Assembly: GCA_048882325.1 (NCBI GenBank)
Contig: JBHLRS010000020.1
Location: 1-55,521, forward strand
DNA: 55,521 bases
From: Candidatus Thorarchaeota archaeon
GTDB taxonomy: Archaea > Asgardarchaeota > Thorarchaeia > Thorarchaeales > Thorarchaeaceae
Direction of reading: 5' to 3'
The translations under genes were made by a program, and so were the position numbers. The notes below the pieces were generated by a model. That model worked only from the letters and a program-made list of their open reading frames with translations. It was not told where the DNA came from and made no database searches. How positions within the stretch are numbered: the first letter of the stretch is position 1; each line of letters starts with the position of its first letter. Below are positions 13,757 to 46,588 of this stretch, in pieces.

Positions 13757-13894
13757 GCGCTCGTTGTCTAAAAGGTATCAGTTTCTGGTGTCTTGACTAA
13801 GGGGCTATGATGGATCCCTGCCACAGTGCGGGGGTTTATCCCTCGGAGCCGTAGAACGGATCCGGCCCGGGTTCGAATCCCGGCGAGCGCACCA
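13757..13894 (+). tRNA. tRNA-Gly(GCC) with two introns (13771-13800 in D-loop; 13824-13856 at canonical 37/38)
   Basis: Acceptor GCGCTCG/CGAGCGC-A-CCA, T-arm CCGGG-TTCGAAT-CCCGG; removing both hairpin-forming inserts restores GATCC-CTGCCAC-GGATC anticodon arm. Confidence 0.9.
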
Positions 13895-37029: not shown

Positions 37030-37138
37030 GGGCCCGTTGCCTAGCCCGGTACCCTACGTAATCTTGCGTTGTGTGGGAATATAGGGCGCCAGCCTTCTAA
37101 GTTGGAGTTCGTGCGTTCGAATCGCACCGGGCCCGCCA
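37030..37138 (+). tRNA. tRNA-Arg(TCT) with D-loop intron (~37050-37080)
   Basis: GGGCCCG/CGGGCCC-G-CCA acceptor, CCAGC-CTTCTAA-GTTGG anticodon arm, GTGCG-TTCGAAT-CGCAC T-arm. Confidence 0.9.
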
Positions 37139-39961: not shown

Positions 39962-40037
39962 GCCTCGGTGGCTTAGTGGTTATAGCGTCAGCTTCGTAAG
40001 CTGGTGGTCGCGGGTTCGAGTCCCGCCCGGGGCTCCA
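39962..40037 (+). tRNA. tRNA-Thr(CGT)
   Basis: GCCTCGG/CCGGGGC-T-CCA, TCAGC-TTCGTAA-GCTGG, GCGGG-TTCGAGT-CCCGC. Confidence 0.95.
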
Positions 40038-40603
40038 ATTTTCATTTTCCGCTTTCGAAACAATACAAGTGGTATGAATGCGAAGACGATAACGAAGGCA
40101 ACTCCCAGGAGAATCCACTTCAGAGATGTAATGATACTAGCAACGATAATCACTGGTTCAGAGAGATTAGGGTAGGAGCCAATTTGTGTTAACACTAGAG
40201 TGTTCTCAACATAGTCCATGATTCCTCCAAACAAGGGAAAAAGTACCAAGAACTTGGCCTTCGGACTGTCAGGATATGAATTTCTGATTTCCATATTGAT
40301 ACCAAATGCTAGTGCGAACATGTATGTAAGTGGAAACAGAAAATCAAGCATATGTGCTTGCGCCCAGACATTCAAACCTTCCTGACCCAGCGTGTTAAAC
40401 ACATCCGTGATTTCGTCAATCGAATATGAAAAACGCGTGTCAGGCATTGTAACATCAGCATAGACATCATAGACCCAGGTTTGGGTCAACATAGCCATGA
40501 CCATCACAACAGCAAAACTCGAGATTATCATAAGAATGAGATTACGAGGAGAGGTCATTTTCTCAATTGATCTAAGTACTCGCACTAATATGACCCCAAT
40601 CAA
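39980..40603 (-). CDS. four-TM membrane protein whose 3' end overlaps tRNA-Thr antisense
   Basis: PDTRFSY, LDFLFPL, DYVEN, KW pattern; no stop before tRNA. Confidence 0.8.
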   Translation of the reverse strand: MIGVILVRVLRSIEKMTSPRNLILMIISSFAVVMVMAMLTQTWVYDVYADVTMPDTRFSYSIDEITDVFNTLGQEGLNVWAQAHMLDFLFPLTYMFALAFGINMEIRNSYPDSPKAKFLVLFPLFGGIMDYVENTLVLTQIGSYPNLSEPVIIVASIITSLKWILLGVAFVIVFAFIPLVLFRKRKMKIGAPGGTRTRDHQLTKLTL

Positions 40604-40678
40604 GCTCTTTCGTGAGTCCTATTTGGAAGTTTCCAACTGTCCTAATGACTCGAGTCCCGCCCGGGGCTCCAATTTTCA
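40016..40678. mobile_element. single-gene cassette/micro-island at tRNA-Thr
   Basis: Perfect 29-bp direct repeats 40016-40044 and 40650-40678 enclosing one gene. Confidence 0.7.
40650..40678 (+). repeat. copy of tRNA-Thr 3' end plus trailer
   Basis: TCGAGTCCCGCCCGGGGCTCCAATTTTCA identical to 40016-40044. Confidence 0.95.
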
Positions 40679-43384: not shown

Positions 43385-43532
43385 GCGGAGGTTGCCAAGC
43401 CAGGTTAAAGGCGCTAGGTTGAGGGCCTAGACTTTGTGGCGTCTTGTCACGAAGAGGCTATCTCGTAGGAGTTCGCGAGTTCAATCGATTTGGGATTTCT
43501 CCTAGTCGGAATAAATCTCGCCCTCCGCACCA
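43385..43532 (+). tRNA. tRNA-Leu(GAG) with two non-canonical introns (43431-43460 at ~43/44; 43485-43514 in T-loop ~58/59)
   Basis: GCGGAGG/CCTCCGC-A-CCA acceptor, CTAGG-TTGAGGG-CCTAG anticodon arm; both inserts fold as bulge-helix-bulge-like motifs and removal restores variable arm and GCGAG-TTCAAAT-CTCGC. Confidence 0.9.
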
Positions 43533-44137
43533 TTTTCTTTCTGAATTTGTGAATTGAAATGCCATATTGATAGAAGAGTGAGAGGGATTCCACATAATAT
43601 CGCAATAACAGGAATTCCTGATTCACCCAAGAAACCAACAAGAAAAAGAGAAGCAAACGTCATGATAATGGCAATTGGTTCAACGACCCTTTCATGGGTT
43701 GTCCATTCTACTGGGGGCCCAAGTATTATGGCTACTGCAATGTATAGTAACAATGTGAAGAATAACACAGTTTCAATCACAATGATCAAACGCAATTGAG
43801 GAAGCAATGTTAGACCATAAGCTCCCAATAGAATAAGGAGTGAACCAAACACGAACTCTGTTAGAGCAACAACCTTTGGCGTGACTTTGATTCGGGATTC
43901 TTTCATTTCATCAGACATGCTCTTGTTATTTTGTTTGGTATCATAGCCATTTGTCTGTCTGTACATCCAAATGATGAGGATGTTGCATATAACAAAGGTG
44001 ACTAAACTATCCAGTAAACTATCCCAAAAAGACCTGCTAACTAGATACTTATATTCAAAGTATAGAAACACACCAACAACAAGGATTAGGTATCCCTCAA
44101 GAAAGCGCTTTTGTTCTTCTTTCATTTTCGCGACCAT
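43502..44137 (-). CDS. membrane protein, cassette paralog 1 (ends GAEGEIYSD inside tRNA-Leu)
   Basis: Six hydrophobic segments; shares ALTEF...PVEW motif with the next two genes. Confidence 0.75.
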   Translation of the reverse strand: MVAKMKEEQKRFLEGYLILVVGVFLYFEYKYLVSRSFWDSLLDSLVTFVICNILIIWMYRQTNGYDTKQNNKSMSDEMKESRIKVTPKVVALTEFVFGSLLILLGAYGLTLLPQLRLIIVIETVLFFTLLLYIAVAIILGPPVEWTTHERVVEPIAIIMTFASLFLVGFLGESGIPVIAILCGIPLTLLSIWHFNSQIQKENGAEGEIYSD

Positions 44138-44195
44138 TCTAAAACGAAACTATGTATCATACGACCGTGTAGAATCTTATCAATGAATTTGAGAG

Positions 44196-44217
44196 TCAAA
44201 TCTCGCCCTCCGCACCA
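44196..44217 (+). repeat. tRNA-Leu 3'-end copy 1
   Basis: TCAAATCTCGCCCTCCGCACCA, identical to the spliced tRNA 3' 22 nt. Confidence 0.95.
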
Positions 44218-44621
44218 TATTCTTCTTTGGTAGTTGTAGTCTTCCTGATTCGGGCATTTGGATGAAGAGTGGCAATTAGAATCAAGATTAATCCCACAAG
44301 CATTACGAGAATTCCCAGTTCGAAACTTGTCGAGTTAAAACCAATCCAAATGCCTGAAAGCAACAGAGTAGAGCCAATTCCATTCAATCTCTTTGCATTT
44401 GCGGACCATTCAGGAGTTTCACTTGTTATTGCATTATAACCAAAGAATATCAAGAAAGCAAAAAACAAGCCAAATACAAGCATAGTAAGATCCTTTAGCT
44501 CGCTAGTTCTAATGTTGATTGCTAATACCATGAGAAGTAGTAATATACCTATAAACAATTCAGCAAGAGCCACTAATTCTGTCGATAGTTCCTTATCAGA
44601 CTCCTGATTGTTACGTTTCAA
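44196..44621 (-). CDS. four-TM membrane protein, cassette paralog 2 (ends GAEGEI*)
   Basis: ALAELFIG...TPEWS; GGAGG RBS upstream of TTG. Confidence 0.75.
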   Translation of the reverse strand: MKRNNQESDKELSTELVALAELFIGILLLLMVLAINIRTSELKDLTMLVFGLFFAFLIFFGYNAITSETPEWSANAKRLNGIGSTLLLSGIWIGFNSTSFELGILVMLVGLILILIATLHPNARIRKTTTTKEEYGAEGEI

Positions 44622-44671
44622 CCGATACCCTCCAACAAGATAAGCACTGTTGATAGATGATTACTGTTATT

Positions 44672-44694
44672 TTCAAATCTCGCCCTCCGCACCA
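44672..44694 (+). repeat. tRNA-Leu 3'-end copy 2
   Basis: TTCAAATCTCGCCCTCCGCACCA, identical to the spliced tRNA 3' 23 nt. Confidence 0.95.
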
Positions 44695-45137
44695 TCCTCT
44701 TCTTTGTAAGGCAAGAAATCTAGGCGTGGCTTAGATCTATTGATGTGTGGAGTTGAATACTTCATACGCCAGCAGGATGATAGAATAAGAAGAGTCCCAA
44801 ATACCACATATAGAATAGCCACTCCAGTTTCGGTCAATATATCAACAAGAAATAGAAACAACGAGGACAACAAAAGAAGGGATACAACGCAATCAATCCG
44901 GTCACTTGTTGTATCGTTGGACCACGTGACTGGAGTACCCAGAACCCACAACTTTGCTAAATAGAGTATCAATAGAAAAACCACAGCGATTCCGATTAAA
45001 ATAAAAATATAGAGTGCCAACAACTGGAAAAATCCGTAAAATCCCACCAGGAGACTAAGTAATCCAAAACCGAACTCAGTCAAAGCAAAAACATTGTGCC
45101 TGTAATCAAAACTTGAGTGGTTCTCTGAGTCGTCCAT
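44673..45137 (-). CDS. four-TM membrane protein, cassette paralog 3 (ends GAEGEI*)
   Basis: ALTEFGFG...TPVTWS; GAGGAG RBS upstream of ATG. Confidence 0.75.
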   Translation of the reverse strand: MDDSENHSSFDYRHNVFALTEFGFGLLSLLVGFYGFFQLLALYIFILIGIAVVFLLILYLAKLWVLGTPVTWSNDTTSDRIDCVVSLLLLSSLFLFLVDILTETGVAILYVVFGTLLILSSCWRMKYSTPHINRSKPRLDFLPYKEEDGAEGEI

Positions 45138-45208: not shown

Positions 45209-45222
45209 GAGTTCAAATCTCG
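45209..45222 (+). repeat. tRNA-Leu 3'-end copy 3 (T-arm only, truncated)
   Basis: GAGTTCAAATCTCG, 14/14 to spliced T-arm, in the intergenic gap. Confidence 0.65.
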
Positions 45223-45237: not shown

Positions 45238-45594
45238 CTATTCAGTTTCGTATCTTGATGGCTCAGCGAAGAAATCCATAGCTCTGAAGAAAGTCTTGAA
45301 CTCAGCAGAGTGAACGACTCCTTCAGGGATATAGTATGAGTCTCCTCTCTTGTAGAGTTTTGTCGCATCTCCAATTGTCAACAACATCTCTCCCTCAATT
45401 ACAAAGCCATACTGTGCACTATGACTATGAGGAGGGAGACTTCCTATGGGTTCAATCTCAAAGAACGCAACTTGAAAACCGACACCTTGAGCTATCCATG
45501 CTTGGACCCCTTCCAATGGAAGCTTTGCCTTTGGCAGTTCTCTGATACAATCCGGATATGGTTCAACGGTCATGATTCTCAGCATCCTTTTCAT
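45238..45594 (-). CDS. cupin domain protein
   Basis: PPHSH...Q.G.VIEG, GDSYYIPEGVVHS. Confidence 0.9.
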   Translation of the reverse strand: MKRMLRIMTVEPYPDCIRELPKAKLPLEGVQAWIAQGVGFQVAFFEIEPIGSLPPHSHSAQYGFVIEGEMLLTIGDATKLYKRGDSYYIPEGVVHSAEFKTFFRAMDFFAEPSRYETE

Positions 45595-46046
45595 TCAAGT
45601 TCAATTCGCTCCATCTTGAATTTCCTCATTCGTTCATCAATTCCTGAACCGAAAGGTGCCATAAATCTCTGGATTGAAGTAAATAGTTCTTCAGGGACTT
45701 CTAAGGCTGCTTCAATGCACTGAGCAAGATCATTCTTTGAAAGGTATTGAGTCAAGGGGCAATGGACCAAATAATGGTCTTCCCCATCTGTTGAGAAAAT
45801 GGGATATTTCCTGCAAAGCAACGGGCGTACAGGATAGATTTCGCAGAGAGATTCTTTGAGATAGGGGCAAATAAGGTCCTCTCCGAAATCTGTAACATAG
45901 CAGTTCTCCGTGATTTCAATGAACTTGTCCGGATACCCAACCTCAATAACTCGGTCTACTTCCGACTTTGTGGCAACAGATCCCCCTAGCGTACAACAGT
46001 ATCCACCGCATTCTTTGCAGATACTCAAGTGCTTGTCATTTGTCAT
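45591..46046 (-). CDS. YkgJ family cysteine-cluster protein
   Basis: CKECGGYCC, CPYL...CEIYPVRPLLCRKYP. Confidence 0.9.
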   Translation of the reverse strand: MTNDKHLSICKECGGYCCTLGGSVATKSEVDRVIEVGYPDKFIEITENCYVTDFGEDLICPYLKESLCEIYPVRPLLCRKYPIFSTDGEDHYLVHCPLTQYLSKNDLAQCIEAALEVPEELFTSIQRFMAPFGSGIDERMRKFKMERIELE

Positions 46047-46075: not shown

Positions 46076-46097
46076 TCAAATCTCACCCTCGGCATCA
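46076..46097 (+). repeat. tRNA-Leu 3'-end copy 4 (degenerate)
   Basis: TCAAATCTCACCCTCGGCATCA, 19/22 to spliced tRNA end, followed by pyrimidine tract. Confidence 0.8.
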
Positions 46098-46111: not shown

Positions 46112-46588
46112 TTACACTAGAACCTTCTCAAGCCAGACATGATATCCCCAAGGATTCTTGTTTTTCTCGAAGATTGAATACCCGTGCTTTTTGTAAAAGC
46201 TCACAGCCCACTCTGCGTCGCTGTCTGTTTCTAAGCGAACCTTCGTGAAATTGAGGTGCTTCGCCTTCTTTTCAAGAAAACTCAGCAGCGCAGAACCAAT
46301 CCCTTGCCTTTGGTACTTTGAATGAACGTGCATTAGTGGAATCCATGCTGTATCCTCGTTTCTAGTTCCAAAAGATCCCACAGCAACAATCCTGCCCCGC
46401 TTCTTGTGGATATAGAACTCCATGACCTTTGCCATCTCATCAAATTGTTTTCGAGTCAAGAAAGGGTCAAGAAAATGTTCTTCCGGGATGATTTTGCTGT
46501 ACCATTCGCGATTGATTGTATTGATGAGTGTGAGAATCTCTTCCAAATCAGCTGGTTCAGCAGGTGTGAACTTGATTGATTGTGTCAT
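46112..46588 (-). CDS. GNAT family N-acetyltransferase
   Basis: VHSKYQRQGIGSALL, AVSFYKKHGY. Confidence 0.92.
   Translation of the reverse strand: MTQSIKFTPAEPADLEEILTLINTINREWYSKIIPEEHFLDPFLTRKQFDEMAKVMEFYIHKKRGRIVAVGSFGTRNEDTAWIPLMHVHSKYQRQGIGSALLSFLEKKAKHLNFTKVRLETDSDAEWAVSFYKKHGYSIFEKNKNPWGYHVWLEKVLV

Follow-up and report, generated by a model that had tools for sequence, protein, structure and literature searches.

Three open reading frames on the minus strand of a Candidatus Thorarchaeota contig run into the 3' end of a tRNA-Leu(GAG) gene, or into copies of that end, and share the peptide GAEGEI at or near their C-termini. This raises the question of whether the peptide is a functional tag or a consequence of where the genes lie. 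The stretch of 55,521 nt that was analysed (the window) is contig C20 of G000, a 3.6-Mb genome of 44% GC that is 93% complete. Comparison with relatives indicates that the tail is probably a stop borrowed from the tRNA, that is the antisense translation of a conserved DNA site on array cargo, and not a selected tag. The arrays themselves carry more weight than the tail, which is a minor by-product of them.

Organization of the locus

A preliminary description of this DNA had placed three genes with GAEGEI-type ends on the minus strand and had held that they lack a stop of their own. Their coordinates, strand and C-termini were as described, and none of them contains an in-frame stop before the tRNA-derived site (Table 1). 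The unspliced tRNA was missed by ARAGORN because of its two 30-nt introns; with these removed the remaining 88 nt were called as tRNA-Leu(gag), and the cloverleaf fold gave a z of -2.85. A pyrimidine trailer is found 3' of nearly every tRNA in G000, and the residues KE(E) ahead of the tail match the antisense of this trailer in sequence, as had been proposed. The stop had been read as the antisense of the T-loop TCA. This applies to ORF2 and ORF3, in which T55-C56-A57 is read as TGA, but not to ORF1, since the intron at 58/59 separates TGA from ORF1; here GAEGEI is followed by three codons inside the intron up to TAG, resulting in GAEGEIYSD.

The 22-mer from T55 to CCA occurs exactly at 44196 and 44673, with two mismatches at 43511 (in the tRNA itself, where the intron interrupts it) and with three at 46076; no occurrence was observed in 100 shuffles and the chance expectation is nil. 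At the 58/59 junction the repeats in the window have the sequence of the spliced tRNA. The cassette of ORF3 has its own TATA-like promoter and RBS. The older cupin and CxxCxxCC genes were matched to PF07883 (E 4.5e-12) and PF03692 (E 3.2e-9), respectively, and both recur in other arrays.

Table 1. Features of the two tRNA-anchored arrays in the window
Feature	Position	Strand	Remarks
tRNA-Leu(GAG) gene, encoded CCA, two non-canonical introns; array anchor	43385..43532	+	ARAGORN, spliced form
Intron 1, position 43/44, hairpin, bulge-helix-bulge-like ends	43431..43460	+	Several relatives lack intron 1
Intron 2, position 58/59, T-loop; between T-loop TCA and ORF1; contains the TAG of ORF1	43485..43514	+	
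ORF1, 211 aa, 5 predicted TM segments, cassette 1; ends KENGAEGEIYSD	43502..44137	-	
Exact 22-nt copy of spliced tRNA 3' end (T55 to CCA); first three bases are the ORF2 stop	44196..44217	+	
ORF2, 141 aa, four-helix membrane protein, cassette 2; ends KEEYGAEGEI	44196..44621	-	
Second exact tRNA 3'-end copy (T54 to CCA); contains ORF3 stop	44672..44694	+	
ORF3, 154 aa, 4 predicted TM segments, cassette 3; ends KEEDGAEGEI	44673..45137	-	
Shortened T-arm copy, 14 nt; right end of cassette 3	45209..45222	+	
Cupin and CxxCxxCC genes, older cassettes, own stops	45238..46046	-	Pfam
Decayed tRNA 3'-end copy, 3 mismatches	46076..46097	+	
GNAT cassette gene, own TAA, then in-frame silent DAEGEI	46112..46588	-	
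Second array: tRNA-Thr(CGT), one cassette, 29-nt repeat	39962..40678	+	
Thr-cassette gene, 207 aa; enters tRNA in same phase, meets no T-loop TGA (G57)	39980-40603	-	

Several further tRNA features were observed. Introns of about 30 nt at 58/59 that resemble one another occur in four different tRNAs of G000 (window:43485-43514, C9:46401-46268, C25:30369-30472 and C40:4222-4325); the position splits the repeated site, and related introns were gained and lost among relatives, intron 2 having related introns in G024 and G007. Two other intron-containing tRNAs in the window (37030-37135 and 13757-13891) were missed or misnamed by standard scans, and more tRNA-end copies, of Val/Pro type, lie at 56 and 2671 within window:29-2700. 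The gene looks to have been replaced at L049 (G014:C19, 4133-4463), where 230 nt separate an upstream 5' fragment of tRNA-Leu(GAG) that has one intron from a full copy that carries a different one.

The three GAEGEI proteins

The three proteins had been described as sharing one frame despite high divergence. The common frame was confirmed, but the proteins are homologues (ORF1 and ORF3, 34% identity, E 2e-17; ORF1 and ORF2, 28%, E 2e-11). Judged by their sequences they are paralogous membrane proteins with four core helices and not three independent events, and the common frame is consequently in part inherited. Comparison of ORF2 with four homologues yielded a dN/dS of 0.16–0.41, by which it is taken to be a real gene under purifying selection, and linker indels among homologues preserve the frame. 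Pfam gave nothing over cut-off for any of the three. For ORF2, AlphaFold predicted a four-helix bundle with modest confidence (pLDDT 67), and the model had no match in the PDB at E 0.001; its Atlas matches, at 0.90 or below and to bacterial membrane proteins without names, serve as a lead only.

In G000 and G018 the ORF2 cassette occupies the GAG locus and in G013 the CAG locus, its right junction being identical in G000 and G013, and the ORF2 clade retains the tail across 63–89% identity. The cargo family also occurs at a non-Leu array, where member P0014 (L326:3417 onward) ends beside a different repeat resembling those at G000 C33:2539-5476. ORF1 to ORF3 were shown to be related cargo genes that sit in consecutive one-gene cassettes behind tRNA-Leu(GAG), and each cassette is closed by a copy of the last 22–23 nt of the tRNA.

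Cassette arrays across the genus

The Leu end was present in all 24 genus relatives first sampled, with up to 13 copies each, while the one sister-family genome had four full tRNAs and no repeats. It is common to three Leu isoacceptors, behind which arrays of up to six repeats are found, and the same cassettes occur at the GAG, TAG and CAG loci. Cassette units have a median of 615 bp and hold one or two genes. Mismatches in the repeats rise with distance from the tRNA (0.74, 1.0, 1.4 and 2.0); intact tRNAs are accompanied by displaced 3' fragments arranged as direct repeats with polarised decay. Among the 111 distinct repeats compared, the stretch that matches the tRNA starts mostly at T54/T55 and extends further left in roughly one fifth, and they show no sign of an inverted arm. 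Identical proteins were found with different left neighbours, the tRNA in one case and another cassette in the other, joined at T55 (L190/L192 and L195/L202), and single-gene units are swapped exactly at the repeated site. Further repeats in G000 derive from Thr, Pro, Glu and Ser tRNAs and those in relatives from Ala, Val and Pro tRNAs. At the level of sequence comparison, tRNA-end repeats were thereby shown to bound exchangeable cassettes and the arrays to be polar. The comparison also shows the arrays to grow by insertion at the tRNA end and the cassettes to exchange at the repeats.

Long repeats with whole or partial tRNA introns were observed at L037 (G002:C64), L041 (G015:C124) and L043 (G015:C144). 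L043 holds a piece of an intron type absent from the local tRNA, and the array at L037 runs in the opposite direction to the nearest full tRNA-Leu.

Cassettes could also have arisen if mRNA was reverse-transcribed from a mature tRNA that had annealed as primer to a complementary transcript 3' end. This would explain intron-less repeats, such as those in the window that match the spliced tRNA over 58/59, as well as the excess of antisense over sense genes at Leu sites (141 to 65). It is nevertheless extremely improbable, as no RVT_1 (reverse transcriptase) match was found in G000, tRNA introns, whole or in part, are present in some repeats, which are hence DNA-level sequence, about one third of the neighbouring genes are sense, and the cassettes carry promoters.

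No published work on such arrays in Asgard archaea or Thorarchaeota was found in a search of mostly open-access literature. Throughout a genus of the archaeal group nearest to eukaryotes, accessory genes are thereby collected singly at tRNA ends, and no recombinase was found.

Reading frame of genes that enter the site

The phase in which genes enter the Leu end was evaluated in a census of 269 sites, of which 160 came from about 25 genomes and 109 from metagenomes. Antisense genes face 88 of the 160 genome sites and 53 metagenome sites, 141 altogether. Read-in was observed for 10/88 and 6/53 of these, respectively, or 16/141, about one in nine, and roughly 89% of the genes facing the site have their own stop. 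All 16 read-in genes, from four families, are in the GAEGEI phase. Entry in random frames, by which the preliminary description would have been refuted, was thus not seen. Where a gene has its own stop no more than 30 nt from the site, the three phases are evenly represented (21/20/23; chi-square p 0.90). When each family is counted once, an MFS family at tRNA-Ala, the Thr cassette of the window and an amidohydrolase are added to the four Leu families, and 6 of the 7 are in the GAEGEI phase (p 0.007). The amidohydrolase, at Ala sites lacking TCAA, reads in via the other two frames. The frame bias is real.

The number of codons from CCA to the stop is 7 in the GAEGEI phase at every TCAA site, compared to medians of 27 and 19 in the other two phases. 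The bias follows from the GAEGEI phase meeting the T-loop TGA after 7 codons, which acts as a filter on stop-loss, and as the lengths of T-arm and acceptor are fixed, the 7-codon rule is valid for any tRNA with A57. Cassette ends are trimmed near the site, so that antisense genes often end within 30 nt of CCA. In the proposed course of events, loss of the stop would then add a tail that is short and hydrophilic only in the phase that reads T55-C56-A57 as TGA. Genes in the other two phases would continue for some 20–27 codons, in the tRNA or in the neighbour, and would mostly have been purged.

These results also bear on the possibility that the ORF ends are annotation artefacts, be it untranslated or pseudogene read-through or chance. 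Antisense tRNA sequence is known to yield recurrent spurious peptides, which counts in favour of this reading. Such an origin is highly improbable given that there is no earlier in-frame stop, that dN/dS is 0.16–0.41, that the frame is kept through linker indels and that the phase is biased by family at the above p of 0.007.

Distribution and variation of the tail

A selected C-terminal signal supplied by the site to cassette proteins, whether a degron or a sorting or interaction tag, would account for the strict frame (16/16), for the occurrence of the tail on membrane proteins, MFS, GNAT and an HTH-HNH-like protein, and for its being kept by every member of one family. The distribution of the tail within the family of ORF1–3 argues against this. 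Using a profile built without the tail, a set of 23 representatives was obtained, of which 5 have a tRNA-derived tail, three of these from the window. The remaining 18 lack it and, when aligned as had been suggested, end earlier with a stop of their own, also at the same kind of site. The tree holds five state changes, at least four of them forced by well-supported branches, and the sister of ORF3 has its own stop. Of the seven own-stop members inspected at Leu sites, five (G018, G007, P0013, P0019 and P0031) have the tail in register behind the stop, and in two (P0028 and P0020) it is out of register. The silent tails in register suggest, from sequence, repeated tail loss. The tail would accordingly pass on together with its cassette, and nonsense changes in the linker would remove it again, the direction of the changes being the inferred part.

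The peptide itself also varies. At all three decayed sites overlapped by genes non-synonymous changes were found, giving the termini GLEGEN and GVEGEI, the latter in the G023 homologue of the GNAT gene in the window, which reads through, and RAEGEIQ with continuation past a lost stop. Tail sequence tracks tRNA identity, the ends at other tRNAs being GGPGEI, GAPGGI, GASGEI and GAEDGI. A T-loop intron extends the tail twice in G000, in ORF1 and in GGPGEICSDLG (C40:4292-5470), which buries the motif and removes the free C-terminus. Of at least eight members of one GNAT family, a single one is tailed. In an unrelated family of 220–250 aa, all eight members seen enter the site in the GAEGEI frame; this and the retention in the ORF2 clade are explained by inheritance, though a function in those lineages is possible. 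P0002 retained a stop at this codon despite decay of the repeat, TGA having become TAG, which indicates that tail length is under some selection.

The functional tag common to the cassettes that had been proposed was consequently not upheld and is very unlikely. The borrowed stop accounts for the same observations if the site is conserved for recombination and tRNA function and the peptide follows from it. The case of GAEGEI warns against taking common termini for tags, while protein ends resembling G-x-x-G-E-I are a useful marker of tRNA-end cassettes in Asgard proteomes.

Recombination at the tRNA end

Searches for a recombinase were performed in G000 and across the genus. No match to PF00589, PF00078 or PF00239 was obtained in G000, which as an incomplete MAG (93% complete) warrants 'not found' rather than 'absent'. 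Among 28 genus genomes, likewise incomplete MAGs, PF00589 had no match in 20, including one that is 97% complete in 50 contigs, and matches in 8. PF07508 was found in 0/28, and a Thor integrase profile detected nothing in G000 or the array loci. There was no integrase in any array examined and no tRNA end at the checked loci of the integrases in the 8 genomes.

Two candidates were rejected. For a recurrent tyrosine recombinase of 375 aa (G007, G015, G023 and G024), neither of the two long loci that were checked contained a tRNA end, and G000 has no homologue. A family with HTH and HNH-like domains, considered as mobiliser, often lies directly at tRNA ends but was not found in G000. The 375-aa enzyme is near-identical in G007, G015 and G024, with a relative in G023, and lies in AT-rich surroundings (L062, L068, L069 and L060). 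Members of the HTH family, with two HNH-like zinc modules, abut Leu, Thr and Ala tRNA ends, often reading in (L084:717-1820, L039:2171-3472, L040, L143, L171, L212 and L232). A XerA-like core tyrosine recombinase was likewise not found in G000 or in the genus search, in which 20/28 genomes had no PF00589.

The repeat DNA folds no better than shuffles as an attC-like hairpin (z 0.5–1.4), and no enrichment of the 5' T-stem arm as an inverted arm was observed left of T54 in 88 short repeats. The position of the crossover was assessed from introns and from base 57. Introns at 58/59 are kept in the tRNA and missing from the first repeat at four loci, which points to a crossover right of 58, and repeats in G002 contain introns of the 58/59 type, which points to one on the left. 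Base 57 of the first repeat equals that of the local tRNA in 6/7 cases for G and 18/23 for A. A crossover of variable position within the common sequence would reconcile both patterns. Insertion, we infer, most likely takes place by recombination at the 18–23-nt repeat through host functions or an enzyme acting in trans.

A stopless cassette could in principle be switched by its site, in that a proper protein would be made only at a TCAA site, whereas TCGA or intron-bearing sites would yield one that is long, harmful or unstable, and array position would control the product as in integration-dependent immunity. The genes had indeed been described as complete only when joined to a tRNA end, with gene integrity coupled to the recombination site. 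For the chromosomal state this stands: the stop lies at the junction with the left neighbour, products lengthen when this edge changes, and a chromosomal TCA at the edge common with the left neighbour is consistent with the T54/T55 edge of most of the 111 repeats. Extended products where TCA is missing (G011, G010 and ORF1 of G000) and the four loci at which the tRNA keeps an intron that the first repeat lacks also fit a switch. Whether the TCA belongs to cassette or target depends on the crossover position, however, and base 57 of mostly local-tRNA type together with the intron in G002 repeats indicates that a crossover to the left of the stop is possible. Either way an identical TCA junction beside the gene would be restored in an excised circle, from which no on/off switch follows, and the extended forms persist with no visible decay. 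Control by array position is therefore unlikely.

Comparison with known systems

Integrases with the att site in their own gene are known, of the SSV1/pNOB8 type and as Mx8 IntP/IntX. As in these, coding sequence in Thorarchaeota overlaps a tRNA-derived att site in antisense, but the overlapping genes are not recombinases. Orphaned serine-integrase tails at tRNA ends were rejected as a source, with PF07508 in 0/28 genomes, no PF00239 in G000 and tails fused to cargo genes.

Elements targeted to tRNAs with tandem accretion have been described in the tycheposon islands of Prochlorococcus (10.1101/2020.12.28.424599), and partial tRNAs result from archaeal integration (PMC9897764). As in tycheposon islands, the full tRNA is proximal, partial copies lie between units, newer units displace older ones and decay increases with distance. 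Unlike in these islands, Thorarchaeota units hold one or two genes (median 615 bp) with no cognate integrase found in the unit, and the cassettes move among three Leu isoacceptor loci; unlike in tRNA-targeted elements, the short repeats gave no sign of a symmetric core of inverted T-stem arms around the T-loop. By analogy, the arrays may work like tRNA-seeded island accretion scaled down to single genes.

Cassette arrays are also known from integrons, archaeal integrons and CALINs included (PMC9668308), and the stop of an integron cassette can lie in the recombination site (PMC3118321). The Thorarchaeota arrays resemble both integrons and CALINs in that single-gene units are exchanged exactly at the repeat and the stop can lie in the site. 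They differ in that no IntI was found at the array or in G000 (93% complete), in that the sites are plain direct copies of tRNA ends with no attC-like R/L-box hairpins, and, from integrons, in that the gene overlaps the site by 7 codons and not by the stop alone. It is possible, if rather doubtful, that an integrase-free cassette system on tRNA 3' ends exists in Thorarchaeota in which the T-loop TCA is both recombination edge and ready-made stop, the site (A57 or G57, T-loop intron or none) setting the C-terminus of a subset of cassettes and limiting where these persist.

In mycobacteriophage integration-dependent immunity, attP lies inside the repressor gene, an ssrA-like tag is encoded and integration removes a tested degron (PMC9635641). 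Here too a recombination site at a tRNA, inside the 3' end of a gene, sets the C-terminus. Unlike in the BPs-type system, the Thorarchaeota tail is optional, variable and on unrelated cargo with no conserved degron, and free and integrated forms need not differ. Finally, Randau and Soll, as cited in PMC3218864, put forward the idea that tRNA introns block integration, and the T-loop introns that split the site in Thorarchaeota are natural tests of this idea.
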